DNA of 58,802 bases, filler included, from Sphacelaria rigidula (lineage: Eukaryota), in the NCBI GenBank assembly GCA_964200075.2. It is 7 parts of 7 records of this genome, joined end to end, with 100 filler letters (N's around TTAATTAATTAA, not from the genome) between each part and the next. Parts side by side here need not be neighbours in the genome. Positions count along the whole stretch, not along the records: positions 25,246 to 33,560 come from CAXNAA020011557.1; 6 more parts are not named here. One strand, 5' to 3'. The first letter of the stretch is position 1; the number at the start of each line of letters is the position of its first letter. This document shows, piece after piece, positions 4,301 through 52,500 of this stretch. The translations under genes and the position numbers were made by a program. Under the pieces are notes generated by a model that searched no databases, was not told where the DNA came from, and saw only the letters and a list, made by a program, of their open reading frames with translations.

Positions 4301-5017
4301 CTGTTGTGATGACAGGTCAGAACAAAAAGACCGACCAATGAGATGACACACGCGATGACATGGCCACCACAAATCCGCCGACCTCCACATCAAACCTTAC
4401 CACCAGATCGCTCGTGCACCCGAACCCTGTACACTATTTGACTTCTTTCAACACGAAGATCATGCCCACGGGCCATCAATGACAATCTTCATAAGCACAG
4501 CCAGCACAAGGCTACGGAACCAGCTTTATGCTAATCGTACCCACAGTGCTGACTGCATTACTGTCTGTGGTGTGTTCTCTGAGGCTACGGGAAGCGCAGC
4601 AGTAGGTTGGTTGCTCACTTGCCGTAAATCGAAAACGGGCAAGTCTTTCAACTGGTTTTGGGAGACTACAGTTTCAAGACCGTTGAAATAACATACATGC
4701 CTACCTGGTCTCCAAAGAGTCGTAACGCACGTACATCATACCCTAATAGAGGAAACATTTACATATCATCTGTCCGAAGCTGTTCATCGATGGCGACTAT
4801 GACCTAGTAAGGCTCGCTATTTGATTGTTGCACAGCCGTACTGTACACCGATTCACCACATGATACGAGAAAGGTCCATCGGATACGGAAGAAACACTTG
4901 GGTCTTTGTGTTCTTCATTGAAGGCATGGATCTGGGCACAGGACCATGTGCTGCTTACAGGAAGTAGCCTCTCATAAATCCTGTATGACCAACACGCACA
5001 AAAAGCTCCGACCGCAC

Positions 5018-5749: not shown

Positions 5750-8315
5750 CCCAGCGCGCTGATGATCGGTTTGATGGTATGTAGCTGGGGACGACACTGG
5801 CTGGGCGTGTCTTGAAGTCTGCCGCAAGGCACCGCACTGTACAGCACCAACTATCAGCAATCTGCTACCTGTGCTGTACAGAGCGGCCCAAATATGCGCA
5901 ATTGAAAAACAAGCGGCTCGAGGAGAAAAAGATGTCGTCTTCAAACAGCCTGCAAAAAAGATCAGTGTGCAACCCAGAATACAAATTATACCAGTCTTTC
6001 TTTTGATCGAAACGCCTTATTCTCAAAACACAGGGCACGGGATATTCTCCGGAGATGCGTTATGTTTCGCGCCGGTTCATGTGATTATTCTCCTTAAAAA
6101 AGACTCCAGGCTCCAGGCACGAGTCGCAGGGAACCTCGCCGTGAATGGAGGTGGAGAGCTGCCCATTGACTTGCTTTGTATCGCAAGCTTGCAAACTTGA
6201 CACCGACGTGGATGATATTGACGGTGATTCATTATCCTGGCGAGAAAAACCGCTGCGATCGGTTCACAGGCGCTCAGGATGTGACGACATGATGGGGGCG
6301 AGAGAGCGCATCGTCCTAGCCTAGGCTTTGCAGCTCTTTCCGAGATGATTGCTTCAGCGACAGATTCGGCTCAAGGTATGCGCTGTGCTGTGTGTCCAGT
6401 AGACATGCGCCTACCACGTTCTGCACTGCACGGTGTACAAGTTCGTATCACTCAATAACCAACATCAACTGGAGTTTCGGCGATTAGTTGGACTCTTCTA
6501 CTGTACTGCACAGACACCAGAGTGCTGTAGGTGAACAGCCGTGGTCCGTGTGTACACCTGAATTACTGTTCTTACTGCTTGTCAGTGCACAGCTTGTACT
6601 GTCTTCGTATAGAATGTGCTGCGCTGTACATGTTGTACCACTAACAGGGAATGCTACAAAATGAATGTTAGACCATCTTCAATGGCAGTCACCACCTATG
6701 ATTTTCACGCACGTCGGGGGGGGGAAAGGCGCCGGATCCATACATGGGGATAATTTTGTTGTAAATGAAATTATTTGCGCCAAGCGCGATTATGTCCGAG
6801 CGTTCAAGATCTACACCCAGCAAACACTCAGGACCCGTTTAAAATCAGCCGAAGAGCTAAAACATTGGACGTGTCTTGGTTCACTGTACTGCAGCACAAG
6901 CGCATTAACGTCCGCTCTTGTGTGCTGTAGCTATCACTGTCCTGTGGTGTGTTTAGATCTTGCGAAGACGGTTTCGTCTCCGCTGAGATTGCTTGATGTG
7001 CTGCATGGTTGTGTTCGTCTTTCTGTAACATATAGTATCAGGCGCATTGCTGTCTACACACTTGACTGTTGAAAACTTCATGTTACCCGAACCCATCACT
7101 TGCGCGATACCGAACATGGCTCGGTAAAGGCACACAACCAGCACCAGTATACACCGCTCGACCGGCTGGGCCAGACACCATACTCCGATGAAAGGAGCAA
7201 CGCACAGCACAGTGCGGATATACTGCACCGTCAGGGCACTGCTCGCACCCGTCAGCACGACGGCTGCTGCCGCTGGCATCGGCGCCAGCGTTCGCGGCCA
7301 CGGAAAGACACAGCCAGACATTCTAAGATGGGGATATACTGATACACGAGCATCGCGATGACCCACTGCGGCGGCAATGTACCACTCGCTGTCTGCTTGC
7401 AGCTTCGTTCCTCTGCTGCTGTTCTATCCATCCCGGCGTACACTACAGGTGTGACTCGAGCCTGCGAGCCAATCACGGCCATTTTTCACAGCATAATTCA
7501 CAAGGAAGGTCGCACTTCATTGGCGCTAGATTCCGCCGATTCCTCACTGAAGGGTCTCTGATTGGTTGAATTTCACATTTCACTATAAAAATGTATCCCC
7601 ATGTGTGGGCGTTTGTGCCGAAAAAAATCGGGGAACACATTTTATGTATCCCGATCTGGGCCGAATCGAGAGAGAAAATATCGGGGTGTCACGATTTCAT
7701 AACTATTTCCCCCGATGTTGAGGGGGTCACGGACGTACATTGACGTACGATGGTAGGGTAAGAGGCGTTTGATAATTTGCAACCGCAGCAGAAGACAGTC
7801 CCGCGACAGCGAAGGGCATGCCTGCCCGCGCCGGCTGCTAGAGCAGCTTCGCACGGCGATGTTTACATTTGGGCAATGGCGTATACCTTCTCCTATTTTG
7901 CCTAAGAAAGGTACGAAAAACGTAGTGAAACGCGAAAACAGCGAACACACAATCTAGGCTGATTTCGCTCCGAATTTTTCACGCGCCGCATTCGGGAGGG
8001 CTCCTCAGCGCCCGGGCCTCGGGAAAAAAATAGAAAAAAATATATGTTACTCGCGAGATATTGCCATGCACAGACCGACGTCTCGCCTCCATGAACCTCT
8101 TCCCCTTTCTATTAATAGGCCAAATTTCGGCCAGGCACAGGCTGAGCCGCCTAAGAAGCGGACTTTTCTTCAGCCAGGTCTAACTGACGATCTATCGCGA
8201 GTTGTGCCTATTATGACACATCGTGGTAATCTGCAAATCAACGCGCGTCTTTCACTTCTCGTAGCACGGCGATCTCACAAGTTCAGATCAAACGAAATGC
8301 CAAACTGTAGTCAGC

Positions 8316-8415
8316 NNNNNNNNNNNNNNNNNNNNNNNNNNNNNNNNNNNNNNNNNNNNTTAATTAATTAANNNNNNNNNNNNNNNNNNNNNNNNNNNNN
8401 NNNNNNNNNNNNNNN
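8316..8415. other. Artificial contig linker N44-TTAATTAATTAA-N44 (also 16731-16830, 25146-25245, 33561-33660, 41976-42075, 50390-50489)
   Basis: An identical 100-nt spacer with stops in all six frames separates contigs of 8315, 8315, 8315, 8315, 8315, 8314 and 8313 bp, i.e. a length-sorted concatenation. Confidence 0.97.
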
Positions 8416-9739
8416 CCTCATCTCGGAGTTAAACCTCAACTCGCACAATTTGCTGTTAAGGGTGTTTTCGAGTCGCCGAAACCGCCCCAAACGCGAGGTT
8501 GGGTGGTGATTTCACAATCATCGGAAGCAGCGCTAGTCTGCTTCATGCGGTTCCACATGGATTTTTTATGAATGTCTATGGACTACCGCTGTCTAGCAAC
8601 GAGACGCACTTGGCGCGCGTGGTGGCGTAAGGGTCGCAGTGTAATGCGACGCGGGTAGTGAAGGCGGCAGGATCAACGAACACTTTACCACCGACGAGGT
8701 CAGGGCCATGTTCACATAACGTGAATTGGTCAGGATTAGTCGGACTGACCGTGAAAACGGATGGCGGGTGATCCGCGGGGGGTTCAAAGGTATCGGTAGA
8801 CAGCGTGGGGGTCTGGTCCGATCGTGAAGGGCAGCGTGAATCAGGATTTTGATCAATCTCGTAGATGACTAGCTTGGAAGTACAAGGGTCATAATTAAAA
8901 ATAGATTGCTGCAAAGTGTCACTGGAGCCATCAGGGGAGGAAGCGGTACCGTCTGAAAGGTCCGATTTGGATTCCTCTTGGATGCCTGGCAATGTCATCG
9001 AGCTCAACGTCGCCGCTTTTTGGGGAGAATGAGGTCGGAATTTTCCGCTGACGGGAGGGGGGCGTGTCAATGCTCGCGCGATCTTGGGGGCATGACGACG
9101 AGGCTTCCTCTCGTGCCGTGACAAACGGCTGGGAACTTCCAAAACTTCTTGGGAAACTGCAACTACGTCCAGTTGAGGTGATGTTGTCAGCATCGGGGCA
9201 TGCTTGGCCGAAACTTGTGGACTGTCCGCTGGCAAGCTCGGTACAAAGGGCACTGCTAAATGTGAAAGGGGACGAGTGTTGTCCGCTGAATGTCGGGGTA
9301 GCTTCGCGGCAGAAGGGTGACGCGAAGATCAACTGCTATCAGGCTGGGTAGGAGTCGAGGGGTTTAAAGTGGTCACTTTCGAACCATCAACACCAGAACC
9401 AGTCGAAGGAACTCTGCTACAACCGGTGCGTGCGGTTGTTGAGGGAAGCCTGTGCCTCAAGGGTCCGCGGTCGGCTTTCCCACACCTCAGATTTATACTT
9501 AGTTCCGGAGGACCAAGTCCGGAGCCAAGCATAGAGCTGGGTGGTGAATCAACACAACGGTTACGCTGTGTGTATGAAGATAAAGACGGGGGTCGAGAAG
9601 AACGGCCGTCATTAGATCTCCTACAGAGTGTGGAAAAGTTCGGGTGAGAACGTTTTGTCACCCAAGCGGCGGTGGGTGTTGGGTGAGTCTTCGATTCTAC
9701 TATCGGCGGCGCCGAAGACTTCACGCCGTCGTCGGCGTG

Positions 9740-12700
9740 TCATGGGTCGTTGCGATCCGTCATGAAAGAGCCAGGGTTTCTGGCATTGGGGTTTGAGTTG
9801 TCGTGAGTTGCCCCCGTTCGCTGGTGATGACCATGCGAAGACTTAGAAGGGCGGAAAGAACTATCTCTATGGCAAGTACCTGAGACGGTGTTGGTGGTGT
9901 CGCGGCGGTCGCGATTCGAGCGAGAGTCGCTATGATTGTGGTAAGGCTGGCGATGGTAGCGAGACGGTTTACGATACTCGCGCATGCGTTTTTGCCATCG
10001 ACGCCACGCCGGCCCGTTGCTCTGAAGTTCAGGATTCATGAGCGAAAAAGTATTAATGCAAGGTTCAGGGCAGTCACGCATACTGTGGCCAGTACCATTG
10101 CAGTCGATGCATGTGTTAGCATGGCGACGAAAAGCATCCTTGCGAGCCGGAGGCGAAAGCAAGGGGGTCCACAAATGTGGGTCATCCGTGATGAAAGCAG
10201 TTGTGGAAACGACATAAACGTCCACGAAAGTATCTGCCGGATAAGGCCAAGCATCGAAGATCCACCGACAGAATTGGGTGTCCAAGTATTACAGGACGAA
10301 GTGTGAGTGCGTCCACGAGACCCGGAGGTACTCGTGGATGCGGCACGCAAGGTCTGCGAAGACCCAGAAGAACACTGTGTGCCACGAATGGCACGCGTTG
10401 AATTATGTTCTTGATCTACAAACGCAGTCCACATCGCGTCTACGGAGGCGTAAGGCACCTCTTCGTGCGCCAAAGCGCCCGGAAACAGAGACGGCATCAG
10501 CGTTGGAAATTGCTGAGCGACACTACTGCGAACATATGTCTGACACATAAGGTCACTAGGGCCATTCTGTCGGACAGCACCAGTTACACTAGACACCAAA
10601 AGCTTGAATTCGCGTAGGTAGTCAGCAAAGGGCACGTCTGCTGCCACGGCGAAGGAACTGAGGCGCTCGATGGCGCCTGCCTGATTATACTTATCGAAAT
10701 AACTTATGATGCGCCTTTCCAAACTGTCGAATAGTAGCGGCGCTGTTTGCCCGCCGGCACAATCTTGATCCATTGCTTCGAAGAAGGAGTCGAGAATCTG
10801 TGTCAAGGAAGCAGCGACGTCAGGGGAGCGACGGCTGATTGAGCGATGCAAAACCTTGTGTAATGGGGTTTGCCATCCATCAATCCAATCAGAGTCTTCG
10901 AAACATTGTTGTCCAGTGGCATCGGCCAACTCAAGGATGTTGCGCATCGTTCGACGCATTGAGGAAATGAGAGCGGATGCAGCAGGCATGGTTTTGATAT
11001 GCCAGAGTTTCTTAACATCCATCTGTAAGTACTCACACTTGATCGCAGCGACACGAGATGCCTCTCTACGAGTATCGGAAGCGGCTTTATCAGCGGCAGC
11101 TTGTTGGTTAGCTGCGGCGGCGGCAGCTAATGATCGAGCCGAGGTAGAAGACAATGGGCGAGCCGAATTGTCTTTATCACTATCAGTAAAACCTAGAAGG
11201 CGAGCAGACGCATCAGCTAAAGGAGGCGTTACTTGCCTGACGGCCGGTGAGGGCCGTGCGGATCGCGTCAAAGTGTACTGACGGTGTCTGGTTGTAGACG
11301 AGGAGGAACACTGGTTGTCAGAACGTTCATGGCTGCCCCGGGTCGTACGGTGACCGTTGGTGTTCTTGCGGTTGGTCCCCTACCCGCGGCGTGGTTCGGT
11401 GCCGGGCAGGTCGTCGTCGAAATCGTCGTCACGACGGTGGTGGGAGGGGTGCGGTGTGATCCAAGCATAAGCATCGTCGTGAGGTAGCGTGTTATGGGCG
11501 GCACGCATGGCAGTGAAAAGGGCGGCGACGGCGGTCTCGTAAGCGGGGCGATTGTCCCCGGTACCAATTGTGAGGGAGGGTATGAGGCGTTCTATGGTGA
11601 GGGCGACCGGATCGTTGTTCGGCAGTTTTCCCCCTTGCTGAAGGAAAGGGACGATCACAATGTTGATGGGCAGAGTGAGCGAACGCCAAGCCTGCTCGGA
11701 GGCGCGGAGAACATTGTTGCGATGGTACTTGCCCGACAGTTGGCGTAGCGTCCAAGAAAGCCAAGAACGTTCGCTGCCCTGAAGGCGGAGCCCAGGTGTG
11801 AGGGCAGAAGGCGCCGAGGTCTGAGGGACCTACGGTGGTGCTGGCGGGGTGCGCGCAGGCGAGGCTGTAGGAGCCGAAGCAGCAGCGTATGGGCGCGAGG
11901 GCTGGCGGGTCTCCGCCGAGCCTGAATCGGCAGAAGAAGGTGCAGGCGCTGGCTCTGTCGGCGTGGTCCTCAGAACAGGAAGATGGTGCTCATGTTCCAA
12001 AGAGCGTCGGGCCGTGGTGGCAGCGGCCGTGGCCGTTGCACATTGACGCAAACGGTATTCATCGCGCCGGATGGAGTCGCGCATTCCGTCGAGCGCTGTG
12101 AGGCGTTCAGTTAAAGTCTGTTGAGCCGCCCGCTGGCGGCTCGTCGCCGAGTCGACTGTCTGGCCTTGGCGCGTTAGACGTGCCGTGAAGTCGTCATGAA
12201 GGATAGTAGGAGCAGTGGCCTCCGCCAATTGGCGGGGTGAGGGCGGCGCAGGGGGCGTGGCCAGTTGAAATGCCTGGTATTCAGCGAGTATTTGCTCTTG
12301 ATCTGAGCGGGGACCACGCAACCAGAGCCGGGGTAGGAGGCCCGGCGGGCAATGCTCGACGCCCAACAGGGGGCGGTCGTCCGTGAGAGACCCTGGTGTA
12401 GGCGCCAGAGCCGAACCCGTGGCAGTAGAATCCTGCGGCGAAGTGTCCGATCCCGCATCAGTGGCCGATATGGGGGTGTCATCCGTGGCCGCCGTGTTGG
12501 GAGCGGCAGTCGCTGCCGCGCTGGGGGCGGGGGGCGTGACACGGATGCCCTCAGCATCTGTGTCGATGTCTGCAGCCGCAGGAGGTGAAGTGACCGCGAT
12601 AGAAGCGATGGTCGAAGGTACCTGGGTGTGAGCCATGGTGGAAGCAGATCGCAGGTATCGACGAAGATCTGCAATTTGTCGTTCCACCGCACGTATAGTG

Positions 12701-13356
12701 GCAGCATCAGGGTAGGGCGAAAGGGCACGGTTAGTGCTGCGTTCGTCTCGCAAAGGTGCGTGAATATCAGGCAACGAGGCATCTACGGGCAATCGTGAAC
12801 TTACATGGGTCCGATCGACATATTTAGGTCGTGAGGATCCCGTGGTTGATGATAATCCCGATAACAGAACACGTACGTCATGGACATGAGTAGTAGCATC
12901 GTCATGTTGAGTAATGTCGTCGCCATCCAAATCGAAATCAGAGGGAACATCTAAGGTCGAACGTGCATCATCAAAGCCTGCATGCGCGGGGACAGAGGCC
13001 CGTTGGTTCGTACTATTGTCAAAGCGAACATGATCTGAAGACGTTGAATGTTGAACGGCTGTGTAAAACGCGGCCGCAAGCGCTTGTGAAAGAGCAGTTG
13101 TCGCCGGTCCGTCAGAAATGACAGCCGGTGAGGAACGGAGCAAGTGCTCAAGAGGCGTAACTAAAGGCAAATGCCCTGTGGTAGGCTCTGCTGAGCGGCC
13201 AAGACGCGAGGAGGATGTTCGGCGCGAGGGCTGGTGGACAGAAGTGTCCTCACGAGGCACAACAGAGCGAGCGCGTAGCGACTCGTCGATCATGTTGGAA
13301 CTCCGAGACGGTGTGCGTTTCACAACAGAGCGAGCGCGTAGCCACTCGTCGATCAT
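9740..13356 (-). pseudogene. gag: gag (about 1,200 codons once stops and frameshift are bridged)
   Basis: Ser/Pro/Ala/Thr-rich N-terminus, a coiled-coil-like stretch, a capsid-like domain (AIERLSSFAVAADVPFADYLREFKLLVSSV) and a CCHC knuckle. In-frame stops at 11830-11832 and 11380-11382; frameshift near 10290. Confidence 0.7.
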
Positions 13357-13363
13357 GTTGGAA
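13258..13363. repeat. 43-bp direct repeat with 63-bp period at the gag start
   Basis: cacaacagagcgagcgcgtagc(g/c)actcgtcgatcatgttggaa occurs at 13258-13300 and 13321-13363. Confidence 0.9.
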
Positions 13364-13379
13364 GTCTTGGACAGTGGCG

Positions 13380-13392
13380 GTCGTGGTCACCA
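13380..13392 (-). promoter_or_regulatory. Candidate primer-binding site (tRNA-Trp-like)
   Basis: Minus-strand TGGTGACCACGAC sits just upstream of gag and resembles the TGGTGACCCCGAC tRNA-Trp PBS of many Ty3/Gypsy elements. No canonical ..CA LTR end directly precedes it. Confidence 0.35.
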
Positions 13393-16730: not shown

Positions 16731-16864
16731 NNNNNNNNNNNNNNNNNNNNNNNNNNNNNNNNNNNNNNNNNNNNTTAATTAATTAANNNNNNNNNNNNNN
16801 NNNNNNNNNNNNNNNNNNNNNNNNNNNNNNTCAAAGCCAGCCCAAAAGTGTCACGAAAACAATC

Positions 16865-21942: not shown

Positions 21943-22783
21943 GTGTGATTCTATTACCGTTATTTTCCGCGCATTCATGAGGAGGAGGGCCACCCACGAC
22001 AGTTAGAACGTTCGTTGGCTTGAACGTTTGATGTGAGATCTGCAACTCCGGCATGGTCACTGTTTTTTTTTTCTTTTCTTCATGTGTGTCGCTCGGTTAT
22101 TTTCGAACACAAAATAATGGAAAGTCTACGGGGAGATACAGCATTTACCCAGGCACGTACATTATTACCGAAAGGTGAAGACTGGCGTCCAGAATAGATA
22201 GGATGACAACACACACAAACACACATACATCACATGTCAAGCAGTCATAGTCATACTCCAGAGAAAATCCCATGGCCAAATCTCATGTAAACTCATATCT
22301 AGTTAGTAGACTCCGTGATAGAACTCGACAGATTCGGAAACGATCAGATTTACGTGCTCCATCGAAAGCTGTTGAAAGGTGCAAGGCAAACTAACTCTCG
22401 TGGCACGTATCGCCTTCTGTACACGCTGGGTCCTGTTCTTGAGGCAAAAAAACGAGATTTCACCATTTGTCGTCGACTCACCCCTCCCCCCGCCCCCTCC
22501 CTGTCATCCAAATGCAAGATAATCAGTAGGCTTCGAGCCGAATGATCTTAGCAGGATGCATCTCACCCCTCATGCGACTCACCGAACACACCACGGCGCT
22601 TCGCGCTCAGTGACTGAGTGCGAGCCTGGCCCGGCGAAAACCCAGCGTGCTCCTTCCCGGCTTTTGCACGGATGCGAGGTCAATGGTCCCATGACTGCGG
22701 CATGCAAGATCAGGAGTTCACCCTCACCTCAACCCCTCCTGAACCGTCGTGTTTTCTTTCTGTTTGTGTGTGTAAACTCGCAG

Positions 22784-24110: not shown

Positions 24111-25997
24111 TCTTTTCTCTTTTTTCTTATTATTTTCCTTGGTGCCTCGTGATTCCGAGAGGATGCAGAAGTATAGGCAAAAAGTATATCCACCTATATA
24201 GGTGGATCCTCCTTTCCACCGTCACCTTTTATCATGACCGATCCCGCGTTGTTCTTTTTAATTCGGGAGCCCACACTTTTTTAATCTGGTGCCCGTTATC
24301 GATGTTTGCAAACAAAGTGACGCCTTCACGTGCACCGGAGTGCAGGCAGTAGTCGGTAGTCATATCCTCTGCATCTGCATCCACTCTCATGTACGTGCAT
24401 CTGCATGTAGCCGCGAACCCTACGGTGAAGACGGAATAGTCCTGTACTGTATTGGCAAAGCATAGCTACCCACTGGGCTCGCGAGTACAGCCCGTGCTTG
24501 TAACCTGGCACTACTGTGTTGTCTGCTGCAGAATACAGCCTGTACTCGGACATGCGGTTACAGCGCAAAAAGTGCCGGGGTTCGCGTCCAAGCCAGCTGA
24601 GAAAATGCGAGAACGGGAAAACCTCAGTATCCATCCTGGGTAAATCTGTCGTGTGCCTCCTTCTATTTGATGCGATGGCAACACAATCAAAAGCACAAGA
24701 CATCTGTTCAATGACATTTGTTGGGAGTAGTGTCTCTCATCCAAAAACCATCTCGAAAAATACATGTGAGCACGCCACGGTTGGCAACAAAATGCACCTG
24801 AAATGTCTTGAACATCTGGGTCAAAATGGACAACCCCCCATCGTATGGCTCTAAACGTCCAATGAAATGATCACACAATTCAAGGGAAACAACGGTAAGC
24901 ACGTACAAGACAAAACGATAAAAACGAGTGTATACAGCAGCGACGAACACAAGGAAGACCGACGGAGTAGACACTTTCTACGATAGCCCCCCCCCAAAAC
25001 CTGCTCAACAGTGTAATGAAAAAGATGGCCGTACAGCGCCTGATGTTTGGGCTCAGGCTACATGAAGCGCCTCATATTGGCGATATTGGCAAGAACGAAC
25101 CCAAGCGTGGGAATTCCCAGCTTCTCGTTGTGCTCGGCTTTTCTCNNNNNNNNNNNNNNNNNNNNNNNNNNNNNNNNNNNNNNNNNNNNTTAATTAATTA
25201 ANNNNNNNNNNNNNNNNNNNNNNNNNNNNNNNNNNNNNNNNNNNNCAAGTAGGGTGTCTTGAGTGCGTGTGTGCGTGCTTCGCGCAGGAGAAAATAAAGG
25301 GGAAGCGGACAATGTGCAGGGCAGACAGCCCAAGACTATCAGTCCTCTCTGCTTACAATGCGACTTCAAAATAACCTCAGCAACGTGCAACTTTGTCCTG
25401 CCTGCATTGTCCATGAGCGTGCACTCAACTCGGTTGCCCACAGTACCGGCGCGCAGCTCCGTCCCTCATGACTACCATGAGAAAAGATGCGCAAGTTCTC
25501 GCCAACAAAAAAAATACAAAGCACCACCCGACCACTTTCGTGTATCTATCCCTGAGCTCAACTCGTGCTCTATGCTGCAGGGTTGCGTTGGTAGCTGAGA
25601 ATGAGTTGGATGGAGTTTGTGGTCCTTGTGAACGGATGTTATTTGGCGTGGTGGTCTGTAAGATAAGAGTCAAGTGCGGCTTCGTGCCTGTCGATTGCAC
25701 GTTTTCGATCGATTTTTATTTTTTCAATCGTTGCGTATTTCTCCGCGCGGCGCTAATCATGATTTTGAGTTGAAGCCGTCGAGGAACATAAATGCGGTGG
25801 ACCTATCAGATGATACAATTTTTTCGATTGAGAAAAAAAGTGCCAAGACACACCCTAAGGCAGGGCCTCCGTTGTTTCCTCTACTCTCACAATATCTCAA
25901 ACATCAGTGGTAAAACGAGGAAGTAAAGGGAAAAAACCGCTGGATTCAAGGCTGCAGGGGATATACGCATTGAAGCATTCCTGACGTACATACGCAC

Positions 25998-27246
25998 CGT
26001 CCTGTATGCTTCGGCCATCTCCTGCGCGGTGACCTCTGACTTCTTCGTCCTCTCCTTAATGCCCTTTATGTTCTCAGCGTGGAGGTACAAAGTGTCGTAC
26101 GTTGATCGCGCGGTTATGGTCTCGGTGGCATCATTGAGTACTGCCGAACGCCGCACGATCATGACAGCATAAACAAGATGTGCAAGCAGGGGGTGCGGGG
26201 GAAAAGGGACCAGCAAACGTAACTTATTAGTATGGCGGTGGAAGCCGGTCTAAAGCCAGATTCATGTCCGAAAAGGAAGTAGTGACAAGATTGACACCTG
26301 CGCAGATCTATGCTGTGCGGGCATGCGATACATATCCCTGCGGTGCTCAGTTGCAGGGTGCCTCAATATCGTGCGGGGGATTAGCAAACATGTACGTGCT
26401 CGAACCCTATTCATGATCACATGGGCTGCGCCAAATTTTGAGCGTGAAACAAACGAATCTCGCCAGGAAATATTGCTCTCCTACTTCTTTTTGGGGAGGC
26501 CGTTCCGTGTGTGTAACAACCAGGGCGATTACAGCCGCAGAGTTGTTCTCCTCGACCTTCAGAATGCGGGGCATGTGGTTAAAAACAAAAGATGGCACAT
26601 AAGTAGACAGCACAACGCGCCACTGCAGCACATGAAACTTGAGACATTGCTACCAAAACTGGTACTTGCTGCGAGGCGGCGAGCGCATGTGGGGTATCTG
26701 TGTCACATGTTGAGATCGATGGTGAATACCGCCTACTGTTAAATGCTGCACGCACGCCACAAACCGTTCGTCGATTCGCAACAAGCGGGTATACAAGCGG
26801 GAACATAGGCACGCGGCAAACGTAGAATCGCCCAAGACCCTCATGGCAGCAGCATCGAACGCGTAGTGCACACGGCAGCGTAATCTCGTCTCTCCGCTCA
26901 TGATCTTCTTGGCCGCTGCGAGTCGATGGTTTCCGTCAAGTACTTTGTAGACGGCTGTCGGAATGCAGTCCTCGGTGAACTCGCCGTTCGGCAGCCCTTC
27001 CCTGTCCACGACTAGCGCAGGCTCGGCGTGCGGGAGCCATCCCTTCTCCGTGATGGACTCCACCATCACATCTAAACCTCTACTGTTCAGCGGGCGCGTG
27101 AACGCCGTCAGCCTTATTTGGCTAAGAGGCACGTCGAAGCAAGCGATGAAGTTCCGGGTTAGACTGTTCGCGAGGGTTCCCTGGCTATTGTGACCCCGCT
27201 TTTCGGGCCCAGCACCCCCCCGCACATCAGCCACGGCCCCAGACAT
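25998..27246 (-). pseudogene. ParB/Sulfiredoxin-domain gene (exons 27246-26826 and 26140-25998)
   Basis: VPLSQIR...RPLNSRGLDVMVESITEKGW...YKVLDGNHRLAAAK is the ParB-N/Srx signature. The exons join in phase (GAT T|TA CTC AAT), but donor 1 reads CTACGT instead of GTACGT. Exon 2 ends at ACG|GTGCGT. Confidence 0.75.
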
Positions 27247-27922
27247 TCCACCGTCGGCACCGGATGTGAATAACCGATGGCGGTTTGTGTTGCTATATTG
27301 AAGCGGAGGGCGGTGTGTATGGACGGAGGTGGGATTGCAGGCGCGGCAATTTGGGAAGATACGGTATCGCCATTTGTGTTCCGTTTCGTAGCGCAGGTAA
27401 CCCGTTATTTACCGCGCCGACATGCGCGATATGTCAGTGGCATCTCACTGCGGGAAAACTGATTGTGGCATGTGGACACGCGCATTTCATGTGTGACGAC
27501 GAGCTTTTTTGGTTATCTCATCGACCACGTCTCCGCCTCTTGGAACGCGGCTTCGCAACGTTCTTTTTTGCGGACTAATCACCCGTGCATACACGTGGGG
27601 TCCCGGTGCGGGCATGGAGCGATGTGCGAGGAGTACAAACGGAACACGAAAACGGAATAAAATTTTCGGATCAGAAAACCCGCGCAATGCCACTGTTTGC
27701 GATTACTACAACCGCTCATTTGAATGAAGGGGTACTATGCATCGTGCACGGATATTCAACGGAGATTTAGGAAGCTCATCCGACCGTTGTGAACTTTCAT
27801 CCGAGAAGATACGCTGGACGCCTTCCGGGCGCCGACGGGCAGACAAGTCGGGCGTGAGCAGCAGTTTTCAAACGACACACTGTCTGCCCGCAGCGAACAA
27901 GCCCACCTCGCAGCACTGCAAC

Positions 27923-30353
27923 ATGAGCGCGTACGTGGCAAGTCGGGTTGTGTTCGCTCAACGTGAATGTCAGCGGCCAGGGAAACCCTCACCTGGAGGT
28001 GGTGATGTCCCCTCTCCCGCAGGTCTGAGCCCATGCCCCCTTCAGACCATGAGTCCAAACACCCCACCTTTCCATGGCTCCCCTACAGCACCCTACATCG
28101 GGGCAGTATAGCCCGAGACTCGGGAAGCCGATCCCTTCAGAACGATTCTAAGAGCACGACACGGCCGGCTACTACCGACGTAACAGACATGATGCAGATG
28201 TCATTTCAGTGCTGCAAGACACTGAAGTGTCTTGAGGGTTTTGTTTGCGGTGCCCGTGATATCGTCGTACTGCGCGCAGAGCAATCAGAGTTTGCGAAAC
28301 TGAGGTCATGCCGCGCGCGGCTCGACTGGGCGCGTCGACAGGTGCCGCTTGTGAAGGTCAGAAAAAATTGGGGATCCATGTTAGCGGCGAACGAGTTGGT
28401 TTGTAATTCGTTTTTCACCCTTGCGTTCCGAGTGTCGCACAACACCATCGAGTCCGCGAAGAGGAACCCACGGTCTTCGGTAGTCCTCAACGGGTATGTC
28501 GTGCCATGACTTACAGTGTTCTGCGGGATCGAGACCAACTACTCAGGCTGTACCCGTCGCCCGTGCTCGTTGTGCACTTTAATTGTTACACAGATCACGC
28601 GGGGTCGTGCGTGTATGTATGGGTGTGTGCACGGGTGTTTATCGTCCCATCTATTCTGGAGGCCTGCACGCCGGTGTACACCTTTCGGTGTATCTGGGTG
28701 TACCTGCCGGGGGGTGCACAGGGGAAAGGTCAACACAGGAGCTTTTTCTTGTTTTTGTTTTGAGCACTGTACTCCGCCGTCGTTCTGCGGTGCTCACCTT
28801 TCGTTGTTGACCGGAACAGGGGTCATGTCTAAAAATGGATACATTGTTTCCAGTGCTGGTCGATGTTCATGTGGCCGGCATGCTTTCATGAGTTCAGTTG
28901 GGTCGCAGCGCGTACACCGACCCATCATGGCGGCGTGCAGCTCCTCACAAAAGTGCACAGCTTCTGCAGTCAGCACAAGTTCACGGCGAAGCAATGGAGT
29001 CGCGGTGTCACTAATCTATTCCGAACGCCAGCGCAGTGTAGCAAACGTCACCGTGTAGCGCTTGCATCATTTGAACGCATGGGATTTTAATTTGAAACCC
29101 CCACAACCTATCGCACAGGCACCTATCCCGCACGTCGACATCGCCGTGCCAACAGCACCCTCTCTTGAAGCCCATACAGACAGACCATGAGTGCATGACA
29201 ACGGCGCAGCCCACATTATACCGAGTTTCGATCGACCGCGTGCCGTGACGATTCTGATTCCACGTTCCTCCGCACTGTCCAACCGCCTACCACCTCGATC
29301 CATCGGCGTTTCTCCGACGACGTGTTCGACATGCAGGGCTGATAGCTCACAGGTACGCAGCCGACACGAGCACGTCGTGGCGTTTTTCGACCACTTCGCC
29401 GCAAGTTTCGGACAGCACATGCCCCATAAAGACGCCGTACCTCTACCTTCGAAGCAAGAAGGTGGGTTGTCCTGGTGTTCAACATCAAGTGCGAAGCAAT
29501 GCATGGTGCCACCTGTCAAGGACTTTGTACTAGGCCCAAACATTTCGTCTTCGATCAAGCTATGAACACACCGACGTCTACCTTACTTCATGTTAGGCTG
29601 ATATACATTGCACCTGCAAGGCTCTCGTTGACTCTTCCGCTCGATCGCCACGCTCGATGCTCCGCACGTCTCTCACCCGGGCCAGTCACATTGCAGCTCC
29701 TTCCCCCGGCGAGCGTGCGTAGCAGTACAACGACGGTTTTTTGCACTCATTTTCGTATTAATGCAGCCCCGTCAGACCTGCAGTCGAGGGGCCTCGCCGT
29801 ATCACGTCGCTGTCATCATGAGAACGATGTACATGTGCCCCCGGTTTTTTAATCTTCTCAACCCCACGTTGATTGGAGAACAGGTATCTGTTACCCGATA
29901 TTCGTTGACGTCATATGATGGACGGATTGTCGATGCGGGGATCATCACACGAATATATTGATGGCCAAGATCGGGCTTGCGCCGGTCATCCTGGTATATA
30001 GTACCAGGATACTATCATAAGATGTACAACGGGGGTGTCAACGCCGTCGGTACAACCCTACCTCTACCGATGACAAATCATCCCTTGTCGGGTTTATGGT
30101 CGGCACGTCCCGCAGGAGCTGTATACACTTTACAAAGGACAGGAGGCGGGAGGACTAGTTGCGAGCGAAGCTTTCTTTTATCGCGTTTGGCGAGAGGCAC
30201 GACCCAACCTGCAGCCCAAGGTCGGCTCGACGTTCATGAAATGCCACGCCCTTACCGTGTACAAAGACACCCTGAACGGCACTCCTGGTGTCAGGGCGAC
30301 AGGATCCCACCATCGTCGAGGCGGTTAAAGCTGAGCAGAAGGAACATCTGGAG
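27923..30353 (+). pseudogene. Sola-type DNA transposase, N-terminal half (exons ~27923-28493, 29337-29461, 30116-30353)
   Basis: The spliced product reads CCKTLKC...VCNSFF...FRVSHNTI / VAFFDHFAASFGQHMPHKDAVPLP / ELYTLY...SEAFFYRVWREARPNL...FMKC...HLE. This is the motif order I recognise from Sola-like transposase N-termini. Frameshifts are present and no DDE core was found. Confidence 0.6.
28605..28805 (-). mobile_element. SINE 3' fragment (same family as 985-1366) in the transposase intron
   Basis: Shared gtcccatctattctgg...aaggtcaacacaggagc...ctgcggtgct next to a TG-rich end. Confidence 0.7.
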
Positions 30354-33300
30354 GTGAGGGGATACTGTGGGCATCGCATGTTCTTGCAGCAATGCCTCGT
30401 GTGAAAATTATTCCATTTTCATGCACTCGTAGTTGATTCGTGCCGCACGAAAGCACCCTCAACCTTTGCTTTTAGGGTTGCAGCCAAGGTACACTGAGTC
30501 CAGGCACATGAAATGGCGCAAAATCACCTCGGCAAAATTTGGGTCGGAACCTTTGTTTGGTTTGGTTTTGGACTTGAAGCACGCTGCGGAAGCGAACATA
30601 AACCGCCGGATCCTTGGCTTCATGCAAGGTGATCATGAATCAATCGTAGCAAACCCAAGTGAGTCAAATCACTACGGTTCGGCACCCCAAGACCAGAACA
30701 AGCACAGCCGAGGACGTTTTCGCGAAAAACCCCGCGAGAGGAATAACTTGGGGCAAAAGACCGAGGCGTGGGAGGGGGGGCAGTTGCGACGAACCTCAAA
30801 CTCTTCACCCGTCTGCGACCGCAGCAACCATTGCAACGGCCGCACTAGTGTGACTAAGGGGGTGTCGCCGGAGGGTCCGCGCTATTTATTTGGCGTGATG
30901 ATTTTTACTTGCTTGCTGGAATCATGTTGAATCATCAAAGAACTGTTGTTATTGATGAACAAATTAAAAGCAACACTCAACACTGCTGAAACCACTGCAC
31001 ACCATCCAAGTTTATTCATGAAACACACGACCGAACCAAGCACGGCTCGTGCGAATTGTTTCGACAACGTCTTGCTGAGCAGGTGACGCCCGAAAGGGTG
31101 ATAAACACTTGTCTCGTTTGAGATCCCAAGGATCGTTGCAGTTGCTTGGCGGTATTTTCTGCCACGCAACCACGCGCGACGCACGTATCATCACCGAACG
31201 GCCGGCATCTTTTTCCTGCGCCCGCTCCAACAAATCGTATGTCCAAACGCTTCGGTTTTGGGCTGCTCGGGTGCAGGCCAGCATCCTTGACGCAAAGACA
31301 CCGTTCAATTCCGTGTTGTGGTTCCGGAACAGGAGGAAAATGTTTTAGGACACTATTTTCCGATATGTTGTAGGGCTTTGAACTGGACCAGTTTGCATTG
31401 GCAATTAAAAAGTGTTTCACTGGCACTGGTGACGAGGACTCCGCTTTCTCGAGTTTATTTGAAGTTTCCGGCTGTGATTAAACCATATTTAGTATGGTTC
31501 GTTTACAACAAAGATACTCACATGATTACGAACAACAATGACGATAGGACTGCACCCGACAACAGCACAGGTACACACAGTACAGTACAGAACTCGTGGT
31601 CACTGGACCTTGAAGTGATATTGGGGGTATATGCCAGGCTGCTCGTTTCATAGCACGACATACATCTGGGGTTTAAAATAGCACACAAACGGTTATCCGA
31701 GGCCACAACATACCAAGTACCCCATGGCTTGCAATCCAACCGCATGCGTGATTGTGGGTCCGTACGTCAATCATTTTGCGCTGTTATCTCCGCGTGTTGC
31801 CAGCCTCGGGTTGTTTGCATCAACTTCTCCTCACTGAGAGTCTGCTGTTGCATAATACAGATGCTTCCGATGGGATTTGAATGCCATCTGACAGTGCCCT
31901 CCCCCCCCAAAAAAACATCCGAGACCCTATGCCCCTTGTTTGAATCCCGGAGTCTTGGCGGGGGGAGGGGGGGGGGGGGGGCACTAAATTTAATACGGGA
32001 TGAAATAAATGAGGAACAGACGAATTAAAATAAAATAGATGGGCAGTATATAAAGCTTCAAATTCGTGTTCATCATGAAGCTTTATTTTTTTCGATTAGC
32101 TTCGGAGCCAAGTGAGGCCAAGTGATATATATTCTGTGCGTCCCCCCCCCTCTCCCCCCCCGCTGCCGGAACGAGCCTGGCTCTGTCTTCTTGTCTATTG
32201 TATTCCCCTTTTTTTTTTACATCCTATTATCATTATTTTTTTTCGTTCTATCATTATTTTTCTTGTCCTTTCTTCCATTTTTCTCTCATTTTTTTCATGT
32301 TTCTCGTTTTTGTTTCTGATAACGAGCTGCAGTGTTACTATTAGCTACGTAATGCACGATCATCATCATTTTTGTCTTTGTTCGTGCCTGTGTTTGTCGT
32401 TATTTTGTTGTTACAGCTGTTCGTTCCTGTTATTGTTTGGTGGTGGTGTTTGTTGTGGTGGTGGCGATATTTTTGTTGTAGTTATCGCTGCCCCCTTTCT
32501 TTCCTTTCTGAGGCCGTTGCTTCTGTCGTTTTTCTGTTCCTTTCTTGCGTTAATGTTTTTTTATTATTATTCTGCTCTATTTTTGCTGCTCCCGACCACG
32601 GGCTGGATTGTTACAATCAGCTAATGCGAGATAATCAATGAAATGAACCAATCAATCAATCAATATTCGTGGGTTTCGGCGATACGTCGCACATCACACT
32701 TCCACGACAACAAGACCAGTCGAATTCCACAAAGGAAAAAGGGGCCCAAGTAGGCTAGACGCAACCAGCTGCATAGTCGACTTGCACCCAATGTATGTCG
32801 CAGGTTTTGGTGGCAGATACGGCCAACAGTCATGGGCGCCACGTCACGGAAGTCGCCCCGAAATGGCTATTTATTGAGTGTTCCCCCATGAAAAAAAAAA
32901 GAATCATAGGACCGCCGCAGGGGGGAGAGGACGTCGGATTTCGGATAGTTTTTTGTCGGACACTCCTGTGTCACCCTAGACGTTTGGCTCTTCAATGCGA
33001 GGGGCCACATTCCGTACATTTTTCCACATTATTGACAAAAAAAACAGCTGAATACCGCAATTTTTCTCGCCTGCGGGGGTGCTCCCGCAGGACCCCCTCA
33101 CCAGCCGGGGAGGGCCGTTGGCAGCTGGCGGCGTCACCGCTCGCCGATGATGTTTTCCCGTCAATCGGCGAAGCCGATTAACTGGTAAACAATCGATGTA
33201 CTGGGCGCGCCAGCGGCCAGTTTGAAGTTAACTGGCCAGAGCAGTCAGCGCACGGCCCCAGTTTATTGTCTTTCTCGACCGCCCGTGGGGGAGGGGGTGG

Positions 33301-33660
33301 GGCGCGGAGTGCATGACGAGGTACACTCTGCAAGGCCCCTCGCTTCGTGCGATAGACGGGTCTGCTTCGACGTGTGGTGACAGTGTTCGTACCGTTCGAA
33401 CTGCGTACCTTGTAGTTTGGAGAATGTTCTGCTCACCTGTCGCAAGGCGTTCAAGCCGTTGGCCATACCCAACCCTGAAGCTGACAACACAAGCGTGTAC
33501 GAGGGGTCGGAGTATAAAATAACTTGTAGTCCACCGAAAGTGTCGTCGCACCCGCCCAATNNNNNNNNNNNNNNNNNNNNNNNNNNNNNNNNNNNNNNNN
33601 NNNNTTAATTAATTAANNNNNNNNNNNNNNNNNNNNNNNNNNNNNNNNNNNNNNNNNNNN

Positions 33661-41842: not shown

Positions 41843-41975
41843 TGTGTGTGTATGTGTTGTCGTCCCATTGATTCTGGGCGCCAGTCAACCCCTTTCGGGA
41901 TATGTGGGCGCATCAGCCGGCGTCACACAGGAGGAAGGTCAACACAGGAACTTTTTCTTTTTCATTTGTTTTTAG
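41843..41975 (-). mobile_element. SINE 3' fragment (same family as 985-1366)
   Basis: tgtgtgtatgtgttgtcgtcccattgattctgggcgcc...gtcacacaggaggaaggtcaacacagga. Confidence 0.75.
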
Positions 41976-42075
41976 NNNNNNNNNNNNNNNNNNNNNNNNN
42001 NNNNNNNNNNNNNNNNNNNTTAATTAATTAANNNNNNNNNNNNNNNNNNNNNNNNNNNNNNNNNNNNNNNNNNNN

Positions 42076-43599: not shown

Positions 43600-44300
43600 C
43601 ACACGTAGGACAGCTCATGAGCTAGCTCATCTGCGGGCGGTAGCTCACTTGTAGTCAAACATGTACATGTGAGCTACGATCGATTGCTCAACACAAGGTA
43701 AACTTGCGCTGATGAGCTACGAGTTGGTAGCTCACCCAGGACAAACATGCGTAGCTCATGCGGCTCTCATAGCTCACCCGGGGCGAATATGAGCTGATGA
43801 GCTACGGGTTGGTAGCTCACTCAGGGCAAACATGCGTAGCTCATGTAGCTCTCATAGCTCATCCAGGGGAATATGAGCTGATGAGCTACGGTTAAGTAGC
43901 TCACCTATCGCAGGCGTGCGTAGCTCACACAGATCCTATAGCTCACTCAGGGCGAATATGTGCAGCTCATGTAGCTCTCACAGCTCACCCAGAGAAAACA
44001 TGCGTGGATGAGCTATGTCCGGTAGCTCACCCGAGGCAAACATGCGCACCTCACCTAGCTCTTGTAGCTCACGCCGGAAGAATATGTGTAGCTCACGCAC
44101 TTCTTACAGCTCACCCAGGACAAACATATGCGGATGAGCTACGCTCGATAGCTCACCCAAGGCAAACATGCGCTTATGTGAGTAATTGTAATCCCGTTTT
44201 CCACATCGATCGCCTGTCGCGAAGGATCCAGGTGCACGGCATCATTTCCGACTGAAGCGCGGCTAGAGCTGCTGCCCCCCGCGGTCGCCATGCAGGGCGA

Positions 44301-44373
<73 letters not shown>

Positions 44374-45051
44374 TTGTGTGTGCGTCTGTGGTTGTGTGTG
44401 TATGTGGTGGCTATGATGGGGATGCCTTCTGATGCAGCCATGTTGATTGTTGATGTTTACAAAAAGCAAATCCATCGCTACACTAAACGGAACAGGTGTG
44501 TGCACATCTAACATCTAACCGTTGTCACGTACATACAAAATCAATGTGCATGAGCATCGGAACAAAAACAACTCCAAGATCGGCGTAGCTCCCGTAGCTC
44601 TTTGCTCAACCAGTGCAATCATGCGTAGCTCCCGTAGCTCTCATAGCTCATCCAGGGCAAACATGCGTAGCTCATGCATCTCTCATAGCTCATCCAGGGC
44701 AAACATGTGTAGCTTATGCATCTCTCATAGCTCATCTGGGGCAAAAATGCGAAGCTCATGCAGCTCTCATAGCTCATCCGGAGCAAACATGCGTAGCTCA
44801 TGCAGCTCCCATAGCTCACCCAGGGCGAATATGAGCTGATAAGCAACGGGTTGGTAGCTCACCTATCGCAAACGTGCGTAACTCCCACAGCTTCGATAGC
44901 TCACCCAGGACGAATAGGAGCTGATGAGCTACGGGTTGGTAGCTCATGTACGGTAAACATGCGTAGCTCATGTAGCTCTCATAGCTCACTAGGGAGCTAC
45001 ACTATAAAAGAGCTAGCTCGAGCTATAGGGAGCTGATCTGTCCGACGTGTG
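43600..45051. mobile_element. Non-autonomous TIR element (Mutator-like, ~9-bp TSD) filled with TAGCTCA repeats
   Basis: TIRs cacacgtaggacag (43600-43613) and ctgtccgacgtgtg (45038-45051); flanks GGAACCCTG / GAAACCCAG; internal tandem units built on tagctca/tgagcta. Confidence 0.7.
44305..44400. repeat. (TG)n microsatellite
   Basis: A pure TG run of ~66 nt plus a degenerate extension. Confidence 0.95.
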
Positions 45052-49500: not shown

Positions 49501-52500
49501 CAGGGTGGGTCATCTGCTGGATCGGCATCATTTTCACACCACATTTTGACATCGGGACGCCACCACAAGCCGCTACGATTGACGATTTGCCTGAACTTTC
49601 TTCCCGCGTACATATCTGTGACACCTGCCCGAAAGTTTGGGACAACAAATGATGTGAAAACAGTGGCTTCGGGTGACGGGCAAATGATATATATCAAGCT
49701 ACTGGAATGATTATTGGGAATCTGAGTTCACGCATTATAAAATTGTTTCGTTGTCCTACCAAGCAACAGCTCATTCGTGACACTAACTCTCAGATATCGT
49801 CGTGCTTCTGCCCCACGCTCTGCCGTCTCCTTCTCCATGGCCAGTTCAACGGTGATCGTGTATTGGTCTGACCCGAATCTGGAATACCCGTTGAGCGATG
49901 GCTCCCCCAGCAGCTTCATCGGAGATATGCCGTACACGCGCCTACAACCCGGTATCGCCCGGTACAACTTCTCGCGAACAGCAATTGTACGTCGTGCTCA
50001 GTGGTACCGTTTACTTGTTTTGTTGAATTTGTGTTATTTTTTATTAGTCGCCGTTCAGTCATACGGTGTGTTCTGGTATATCAGCGTGCATGTACGCGCG
50101 CGTGTATGTAATCATCGTTTTCGTCGCCCCATGTTTGCTGGACTTCATTTCGTAACAATATCGACGGTCGATCTTCAACACCGGAAACGACGACCCTAGA
50201 CCTCAGTAGCTTCTCTCTGCTTGCGAGCGTTCCCCTCGAATGACATCATACCGTGTATACCGAGAGTTCTAATCCCCGATTCATGGACATTACTCGGACA
50301 AAATAGAGTCATGCCATCATGGGTGTACTCATGATCTTGCATGCCATAGCCATAAGACCATTGACCTCGCATCCCTACAATGCCGGGACNNNNNNNNNNN
50401 NNNNNNNNNNNNNNNNNNNNNNNNNNNNNNNNNTTAATTAATTAANNNNNNNNNNNNNNNNNNNNNNNNNNNNNNNNNNNNNNNNNNNNGTTGCTTTATT
50501 TTGTGGTATCGCCACTTCCTGAGACAGCCACAGCTTCTACACTGCCTCATGGGTGCCTCACCATACCGTGGCGGGGGGGGGGAGCTATGCATCAACATAG
50601 CGGTGGAAGTCGTTGGTCAACTGGGGTAACGTAACAGACAAGTTACAACAACAGGGAGCAGGGTTTTTGAGGGCCGCGAACCCTATTAACAGTAGGACGC
50701 CTCCGATGACGATCCTAGGGTCTGCGGTAATTCCAATCTGGTTCCATCCGGAAGATAGAGTGAGGAAGTTATGGGTTAGGATAGTCGATGGATTACCGTA
50801 CGGATTCATTTTGGGGGCAAGTTTCTTCGGAATAAACAAAAGCACGTTGTCTTTTGAAGGCCGATCAGGGTTTCGACCTTCACCGGAGGCACCGTGGGTA
50901 AGGTTCGTGTCCCACGGTTCACCAAAACTCGGAGCTGTGGACACCGAACGCCTTACCGGCCAAGAAGATTCGGCAAGGTGGGATCTCTTCTGTGCTGTCA
51001 AGCCGAGCACAACTCGTAACGACCCGACGGGGATGTTGTCTGGTGAGAGCGACCTGGCGGCGTGGGGTGAGGTATGGAGGGACCTTGGAGCAGCGTGGGA
51101 GGACGACGCTACGCTTCAGTGGCCACTGCGTCTGACGGAGGACGCGAGTTTAGAAGGTTTCGTTAGCGAGTTAGTCCCAGACTACATACGAGGGCCGCAA
51201 CCGCAGGAACGTCAACTCGTGTTAATCAAACCTCGGCAGGCGTTCGATTTAGACGAGGAGGCAGAGGTAGGGGTAGCCAGGGGAGTGCAATGGTGGGATC
51301 CACATTTACCATTAGTATGTAAGGTGGTCAACACAGCCAAGAGTGCTCGGTTCGTAAAGAAGGGTATCATAGTGGCAAAGGTCGTGGCCGTGAATGTTCA
51401 GGATCGCGAGCGGTTGCAGAGTCTGTACGTTTCCGACTCGGGCACAACGCTTAAGTCGAAGCTGGAGGATGGAGGGACTAGTCCCTCCCCAACCGCTGCC
51501 GGAATCAGCGAAGGTGAAGGAGCGTCACGCAACTGAGCCCACAGGAGTAGATCTCACGGAGGCGAACATGGGTCAGCTAGGTCCAGCGCAAAAGGGCCGG
51601 CTGCTGTCATTGTTAGGTGACTTTAACAAAGCAGGTCTTTTTGCGGTGGACCCTAAGCGAGTGAAGGCCGCCCGTGGAGAACCTTTACGTCTACAGCTGA
51701 AGGAGCCCAAGTGTCGGCCGTTCGCCGTCGGCACTAGGCGTTACTCGCCAGAACAAGAGACGGCTATTCAAGATGAGATCCAGAACCTCGTGAAGCGGGG
51801 GATCATCGACCCGTCGACGTCAGCATGGGCAGCTGCTTGCGTCACGGTACGGAAGAAGGACGGTAGTTTACGGTTGTGTCAGGGTTATCATGAACTGAAC
51901 GAACTTCTCGAGTCATGCAGCGGCGGTTTGGGGAATATGCAGACCATGTACAGTGGACTAGCAGGATCCAAGTACTTTACGAGTGTTGATCTATCGAGTG
52001 GATTTTTTCAGTTGGAGGTGGCAAAAGAGGACCGACACCTGACAGCCTTTCGCGATGCAAAGGGACACCTATGGCAATATCAACGTTGCGGATTCGGACT
52101 CAAGGTATTATCGGCGACATTTCACCGAACAGTATCCGAAGCGTTGTTACCGGCGAAGGGTGTCAAGAATTGGTTGGATGACATCTTGTGGCCTAGTGCG
52201 ACTTTCGCCAGTCACATGGCGGGGCTGAGAGTTGTGCTTCATTGTTTACTAACCGCCGGCCTCACCGCGAATTTCCAGAAATCACAGTGGTGCACCCAAC
52301 AACAGGACTTTGTGGGGATGACGATCGATGCTTCGGGGATTCGACCCTCGCAGTCTAAAATCGAAGCAATCGCCCAGTTGAGGGAACCACAGAAGGTAGA
52401 GGAGTCAAGATCGTTTCTGGGTATGACTGGATATCTTAGGCGGTACATAAAGGGGTACAGTAACATGGAGGCGCCACTCACAGACTTGCTGAGAGACAAG

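Follow-up and report, generated by a model that had tools for sequence, protein, structure and literature searches.

We analyzed a 58.8-kb window (58,802 nt) of DNA from the brown alga Sphacelaria rigidula (GenBank assembly GCA_964200075.2) in which two spliced genes stand head-to-head: a minus-strand gene encoding a domain with a predicted ParB/sulfiredoxin (Srx) fold and a plus-strand gene that may encode part of a transposase. The window consists of seven pieces of about 8,315 nt joined by N44-TTAATTAATTAA-N44 linkers. Because these linkers join the pieces artificially, features on different pieces should not be linked, and the usable genomic context for both genes is the piece at 25246-33560 (CAXNAA020011557.1) only. 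The original prediction of a two-gene DNA transposon had placed both genes on one contig, which is correct inside this piece and does not extend to the seven joined pieces. Splicing and copy number were read from sequencing runs, of which X1 (0.76 Gb) and X3 (0.58 Gb) are DNA-like and X6-X9 are only tentatively taken as RNA. The coordinates of the features are collected in Table 1.

The ATG of the minus-strand gene at 27246 and its DGNHR motif, encoded at 26923-26937, were both located in the sequence as predicted. We modeled the 140-residue product of the first coding exon with AlphaFold2 (pLDDT 87, pTM 0.76, 79 sequences) and compared the model with known structures. All nine Foldseek hits in the Protein Data Bank (PDB) at E ≤ 1e-3 (1e-4 to 9e-4) were ParB-CDP, sulfiredoxin, PadC, or Noc. 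With VIA-align, Z ≥ 2 was reached by just 12 of 48,161 chains, and the top eight (Z 7.0-9.5) are of the ParB/Srx type by their entry titles; the best was PadC (Z 9.5, root-mean-square deviation [rmsd] 2.6 Å over 91 aa), sulfiredoxin scored 8.6 and KorB 8.1, and Spo0J, Osa, and SspE were lower-ranked matches. The proposed ParB-type domain was thus confirmed by modeled structure, and sequence searches were blind to it. The likeness to the N-domains of ParB, Noc, KorB, and PadC and to sulfiredoxin is one of predicted fold (Z 8-10, rmsd 2.6-3.2 Å, 85-98 aa). A conserved Gly-x-His-Arg loop lies in our protein at the position of the GCHR loop of sulfiredoxin.

We scanned 1.84 billion representatives in full with HMMER and obtained 102 relatives at E ≤ 1e-3, 29 of them at ≤ 1e-10, and in all 102 the matched part corresponds to residues ~25-143. 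These relatives are clusters at 50% identity and are mostly isolated exon-1 fragments. Across the family, the motif reads (V/L)LDGNHR; 60 of the 79 aligned sequences have DGNHR exactly. In the 79-row alignment, the end of exon 1 is reached by every relative (78/78), and past it the residues (S/G/C/R)(E/K) are read in 63 of the 76 relatives that continue. Since these residues correspond to NGT followed by GAG or AAG, we interpret them as read-through of a phase-1 GT(G/A)AG splice donor, and the conservation of this donor points to a eukaryotic family with one common intron position. Five relatives (P0010, P0047, P0076, P0099, and P0100) have an (L/F/C)N(D/E/R/A) segment after exon 1. The sole Pfam match among 82 family members was GmrSD_N, in one member (E 0.0036); PF12520 was matched by none of the 82. 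A search with the smaller family alignment found no relative in IMG/VR and none in the JGI metagenomes.

Two side observations concern this family. In an Atlas feature search, P0001 (26650-27246, minus strand) retrieved a fungal cluster at 0.93, with DUF3723 in 31% of its members. DUF3723 is an accessory family of Starship elements, and we did not find it together with ParB in the literature searched. The lead from the Atlas is that a related domain of the ParB fold may occur in giant transposons of fungi. In the relative P0101 (431 aa), the gene model fuses about 290 upstream residues, with a hAT-like 'DES' segment recognized by eye, to the ParB exon, which hints at ParB-fold genes in other transposon contexts elsewhere.

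Beyond exon 1, the minus-strand gene continues across an intron. The spliced relative P0010 matched 27162-26824 (E 4e-27) and 26138-26004 (E 1e-8; aa 139-183) by tblastn, and aa 156-206 of P0100 matched 26108-25980 in the window. The joint 26139>26825 was seen in X6 and X7 and was missing from the DNA-like X1 and X3; together with the P0010 match, it bears out the second coding exon that had been predicted. In this copy, the donor is CT and not GT (G>C at 26825), in the context T/CT-ACG versus NGT-GAG/AAG in the 63 of 76 relatives mentioned above. Homology to exon 2 ends at about 25940-25980, and aa 184-301 of P0010 (118 residues) and aa 207-843 of P0100 (~640 residues) had no tblastn match in the window. 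As homology ends there and an unrelated repeat of ~170,000 depth takes over from ~25.81-25.95 kb, the gene is cut off after ~200 codons, and an effector domain such as a methyltransferase is therefore not visible in this copy. Specifically, a C-terminal N4C/N6A DNA methyltransferase is absent from it: relatives past ~aa 200 are unmatched, and the piece has no Pfam hit.

The plus-strand gene starts at an ATG 677 nt from the minus-strand ATG, in agreement with the predicted ~680 bp. Its three exons were also reproduced: the joints 28490>29334 and 29459>30114 (GT..AG) occur in X6 and X7 and not in the DNA-like X1 and X3, and by frame arithmetic the first of them is in frame. The reading frame of this copy is damaged at several points. 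In exon 1, the open reading frames (ORFs) 27728-28111 and 28006-28509 lie in different frames, and the window has extra nucleotides at 28083-28093 (8 compared with X3 and X7 contigs, 6 compared with X6); the form shorter by 8 nt would join the frame of 27923 to that of 28006-28509. In exon 2, contigs of X1, X3, X6, and X7 all have, at full depth, an additional CA behind 29435. Restoring this CA lets exon 2 join exon 3 in phase 0; the copy in the window thus has a 2-bp deletion. In exon 3, a frame change is required between 30276 and 30326 to reach the donor at 30354 (ORFs 30074-30328 and 30276-30404). These defects and the mutated donor of the ParB gene agree with the proposal that both genes show similar decay. 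Both the depth and the number of contigs shift past ~30.8 kb, where further coding sequence is unrecognizable.

The transcripts of the two genes overlap. The joints 27574>27993 and 27294>27993, seen in X6 and X7 only, connect the minus-strand gene to an upstream non-coding exon, and the gene model of the relative P0002 uses the junction 27294/27993. This upstream exon is antisense to plus-strand exon 1; as it begins at 27993, inside that exon, the transcription units overlap head-to-head. The simple bidirectional promoter originally envisaged does not fit this arrangement, in which the ~680-bp interval is largely a 5′-untranslated region (UTR) intron of the minus-strand transcript.

Both genes lie in one repeated unit, as had been supposed. 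In X1, the summed contig depth is ~2,000-6,400 over 25802-30805, save for a nested repeat; the left flank stands at 125,000-169,000 and the right flank at 8,000-12,000. Loose ends at 25811 define the left bound, and a jump in contig count between 30769 and 30853 defines the right. The gene model of P0002, a 94% identical protein labelled 'unnamed protein product, partial [Sphacelaria rigidula]', maps colinearly to 28870-28796, 28141-27993, and 27294-26827 (tblastn), so that the linkage is seen in a second copy. Single unitigs have depths of 1,200-2,700 in DNA runs of 0.58-0.76 Gb, among them a 234-nt unitig identical to the window (X3 record 11, depth 2,416). If the unit were single-copy, such depth would need a genome of <1 Mb; for an algal genome of 100 Mb or more, the Logan k-mer depths, which come without a single-copy baseline, suggest hundreds of copies or more. 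No copy of the unit was found among the other six pieces of the window. Contig identities to the window span 85-100% (529, 1981, 3853, and 2252 contigs by class in X1).

Both genes break off in unrelated repeats. In the bounding repeat on the left, 86-98 contigs have loose ends at 25540 and 85-91 at 25811. Inside the unit, plus-strand intron 1 holds a nested short repeat (R-right), with further copies of this repeat in pieces 1, 3, and 5. An RNA-like contig (X7 record 29) runs unbroken over 28465-28941, through the repeat, which indicates that this insertion is common to other copies. We also considered whether the unit is a 3.2-kb insertion that split one repeat (R) into the halves 25303-25441 and 28609-28823, which are contiguous in piece 1. 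This idea was rejected as weak because the copy in piece 5, and apparently that in piece 3, has the right half without the left, because depth is equal on either side of the right half, and because RNA-like joints splice across it.

Table 1. Features of the repeated unit, its two genes, and the layout of the window (positions along the window)
Feature	Position	Strand	Basis or remark
Repeated unit, inner fragment of a larger mobile element (probable), with 5′ parts of both genes	25812..30805		Depth; bounds good to ~100-250 nt
Unrelated very high-copy short repeat, left bound of unit	25540..25811		Depth 169,265 (X1)
ParB gene coding exon 2, start of predicted post-ParB helical region	25980..26140	-	tblastn with P0010, P0100
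ParB gene intron, 685 nt	26141..26825	-	Joint 26139>26825 in X6 and X7, placed within 1 nt
ParB/Srx-domain gene, coding exon 1	26826..27246	-	140 codons + 1 nt, phase 1; open from ATG
5′-UTR intron of minus-strand transcript	27575..27992	-	CT..AC on plus strand; alternative acceptor 27295
Upstream non-coding exon of minus-strand transcript	27993..28141	-	Donor side at 27993; P0002 model 28141-27993; right end not defined
Plus-strand gene exon 1	27923..28490	+	ATG 27923, second ATG cluster 28189; joint 28490>29334 sets the end
Nested very high-copy short repeat R-right, TG-rich start	28609..28823		In plus-strand intron 1; depth 71,449 (X1) vs ~2,500 beside
Plus-strand gene exon 2	29334..29461	+	Joints 28490>29334, 29459>30114 (cut +2 gives GT..AG)
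Plus-strand gene exon 3, FFYRVW ... C-x2-C region	30116..30353	+	Joint 29459>30114; donor GTGAGG at 30354
Possible exon 4, 49 nt, AG/CAC ... CAAG/GTGATC, in phase with exon 3	30580..30628	+	Suggested by sequence, no joint listed
Artificial linkers	8316-8415, 16731-16830, 25146-25245, 33561-33660, 41976-42075, 50390-50489		N44-TTAATTAATTAA-N44

The copy-number evidence bears on two readings that involve no transposon. According to the first, the locus holds ordinary host genes or pseudogenes in a segmental or tandem duplication. The piece is without termini, target-site duplications (TSDs), and a catalytic domain, as this reading would have it, and depth cannot separate dispersed from tandem copies. 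We nevertheless consider it very unlikely, given unitig depths in the thousands at 85-100% identity, the nested insertions shared between copies, the decayed copies, and the flanks made of other repeats; the 102 clusters, with their predominance of isolated exon-1 fragments, are likewise typical of transposon-borne genes. The second reading, that a phaeovirus-like giant virus with a ParB-like gene integrated here and left a fragment, starts from the fact that integrated phaeoviruses are common in brown algal genomes; in addition, the ParB fold occurs widely among viruses, and phage clusters stood in the Atlas list at 0.94. The spliceosomal introns of both genes, an intron position conserved across the family, the absence of IMG/VR relatives noted above, and the very high copy number leave this reading barely credible.

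We propose that 25.81-30.8 kb probably represents an inner, defective part of a cut-and-paste DNA transposon that is transcribed, present in high copy number, and probably giant, most likely, by analogy, the sphacelarialean counterpart of a Sola1 element with a ParB-like gene from Ectocarpus. This element, Sola1-1_Ec32, is described (PMC12477816) as a 21.5-kb autonomous transposon with AACCG..CGGTT termini, 282-bp terminal inverted repeats (TIRs), and a 4-bp TSD; opposite its transposase lies the gene of a 1,104-aa protein with ParB-like and N4mC/N6mA methyltransferase domains. It has 2 full-length and 1,989 total copies, as the flattened row of its table reads. Both loci have a brown-algal host, a spliced gene with an N-terminal ParB-like domain opposite the main gene of the element (here a putative transposase), nested insertions common to copies, and many pseudogenized copies. 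They differ in that only ~5 kb is seen here, without the methyltransferase part, the catalytic core, TIR, and TSD, and in that depth suggests far more copies in Sphacelaria; the likeness is drawn from the published description. In the literature searched, PMC12477816 alone brings Sola1, its transposase, and ParB together. The same source mentions similar proteins from transposons of green and of red algae (with reference to Iyer et al. 2011 and Petroll et al. 2025).

Several results weigh against this interpretation. The Sola-like transposase motifs reported for the plus-strand gene were not recovered: none of the 84 ORFs of at least 55 aa in the piece matched Pfam at E ≤ 0.01, the eight main ORFs gave nothing relevant in Pfam even at E ≤ 1, exons 1 and 3 had no relatives of greater length in an index of 5.8 billion proteins, and the Atlas had no usable hit for the gene. 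Exon 3 had no match in metagenomes, and exon 1 gave only a 13-residue pattern match in IMG/VR (L001), which we took as chance. The plus-strand exons thus match no transposase profile among those used; Pfam is not known to have a Sola model, and none of the profiles used is known to cover Sola. No DDE/DDD core, methyltransferase, TIR, or TSD was found in the 8.3-kb piece, where other repeats truncate the unit. On the side of the minus-strand gene, PF02195 (ParB_N) was matched by none of the 82 family members at E ≤ 0.01, and a PDB profile search gave chance matches only, as did single-sequence phmmer. The CTP-binding box of partition ParB is GERRxRA, and our protein has DGNHR instead. The model of the relative P0010 is helical after aa 145 (alignments spanning both ParB domains had an rmsd of 8-16 Å), and a ParB-type helix-turn-helix after the domain could not be shown in it by structure alignment. 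In the long relative P0100, the C-terminal 294 aa contain no methyltransferase recognizable by Pfam or in the PDB; a reading of this region by eye as a degenerate methyltransferase was dropped, as neither supported it. Repeat arrays that might serve as binding sites, parS-like ones included, were sought in 25800-30900 and none was found. Finally, the estimate of copy number lacks a single-copy baseline.

Our protein differs from the bacterial proteins of this fold in having no sequence-level match to them, in its motif, and in that no helix-turn-helix could be recognized after the domain (in the relative P0010), and the gene described here differs from bacterial ParB genes in being eukaryotic, intron-bearing, and apparently transposon-borne. 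Weighing the points above, we regard a transposon that carries a ParB accessory gene together with a probable transposase gene as the likely explanation of the locus, with its assignment to Sola1 in particular only slightly favored. The earlier suggestion that a eukaryotic cut-and-paste element carries a ParB-like accessory gene stands as far as the fold, the linked unit, and the closely matching case from Ectocarpus, a sister lineage, are concerned, and falls short at the transposase, TIRs, and TSD. It is plausible by analogy and is not new.

The plus-strand results also leave room for a mobile element with a ParB-like accessory gene that is not Sola1, whose plus-strand gene would either encode a transposase of another superfamily (KDZ, EnSpm/Plavaka, or Mutator) or be a second accessory gene, the giant element then being non-autonomous. 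The exons match neither Sola nor any other profile, which suits this alternative. ParB-like accessory genes are also known from Plavaka: PAG3 of the giant Plavaka (EnSpm/CACTA) transposons of the red alga Bostrychia (bioRxiv 10.1101/2025.02.11.637652; Curr Biol 2025) is described as joining a ParB-like domain to a 2-oxoglutarate (2OG) oxygenase, and the preprint reports that giant red-algal elements of the Plavaka and Mutator types contain homologs of the accessory genes of Plavaka. Many giant Ectocarpus families, moreover, carry non-transposase genes only (PMC12477816). Against this stands the sole published brown-algal case, in which that source has the ParB-like gene opposite a Sola1 transposase, the same arrangement as here. 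The exon 2-3 peptide of our gene also speaks against it: it ends in C-x2-C and looks, by its layout, like the region typically found before a DDE core. We judge a non-Sola1 element to be a doubtful alternative.

Under the preferred explanation, the minus-strand accessory gene would supply a protein whose N-terminal domain, according to the structure model, adopts the nucleotide-binding fold of ParB and sulfiredoxin and bears a DGNHR loop. By analogy with Sola1-1_Ec32, the full-length protein would combine this ParB-like module with an effector domain, DNA-modifying or of another kind. The plus-strand gene would encode the N-terminal part of the element's probable transposase, which would do the cutting and pasting. 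The accessory protein may act on the element's own DNA, either by binding and epigenetic marking or by activating a modification enzyme on double-stranded DNA (dsDNA). PAG3, too, has its ParB-like domain at the N-terminus of a protein encoded by an accessory gene of a transposon, and it is proposed to bind and modify its own element; it differs in its fusion to a 2OG-dependent oxygenase and in lying beside tandem inverted-repeat arrays, of which 25800-30900 has none. In a phage, a ParB-like protein activates a 5mYOX thymine dioxygenase on dsDNA (PNAS 2026, PMC13229309). There, as our accessory protein may do, a ParB nucleotide-binding domain that lacks a clear DNA-binding domain works with a DNA-modifying enzyme; in the phage the two are separate proteins, and at our locus no partner enzyme was identified.

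ParB-like accessory genes on algal giant transposons belong to a recent hypothesis, according to which an element binds its own DNA and marks it epigenetically. The Sphacelaria locus adds a second brown-algal lineage, apparently at very high copy number and with spliced transcripts from both strands. As the domain is recognizable by structure only and not by Pfam, the locus should help in annotating brown-algal repeats and in choosing a system in which to test self-marking. Since both the gene layout and the way to interpret it have been published before, the locus opens no new question. A more far-reaching reading would combine a currently active Sola1-type transposon, amplified to hundreds or thousands of copies in a sphacelarialean alga, with a broad ParB-fold clade specific to eukaryotic transposons (unseen by Pfam, with 102 clusters and one conserved intron) that recruits or activates DNA-modifying enzymes on the element's own DNA. 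We consider this full combination unlikely. If it were true, the overlapping head-to-head transcripts could feed small-RNA control, and the clade might extend to the fungal DUF3723 proteins of the Atlas lead.

Other features of the window are repeats and retroelement sequences. Short repeats with a summed depth of 70,000-175,000 in the DNA-like runs occupy 25303-25441, 25540-25811, 28609-28823, and 32474-32751 of the piece with the two genes, and further repeats of the same depth class lie at 1161-1539, 22167-22209, and ~41850-41975; their depth suggests families of very high copy number, similar to miniature inverted-repeat transposable elements or short interspersed nuclear elements. In piece 1, the repeat types of 25303-25441 and 28609-28823 adjoin around a TG microsatellite. 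Piece 6 contains, at 43708-44989, TAGCTCA-rich tandem arrays with periods of 42, 85, and 126 nt on either side of a (TG)51 microsatellite. The minus strand at 10039-13386 has two long open frames of 447 and 518 aa (P0107 and P0106) that have no Pfam match and are rich in Ala, Ser, Thr, and Pro. The stretch that holds them is GC-rich and strongly GC-skewed, and the frames may be gag-like or related to retroelements. The plus strand at 51394-56183 encodes the pol region of a Gypsy-type long terminal repeat retroelement, with RVT_1 (1e-13), RT_RNaseH (7e-27), Integrase_H2C2, rve, and a C-terminal Tudor-like domain.

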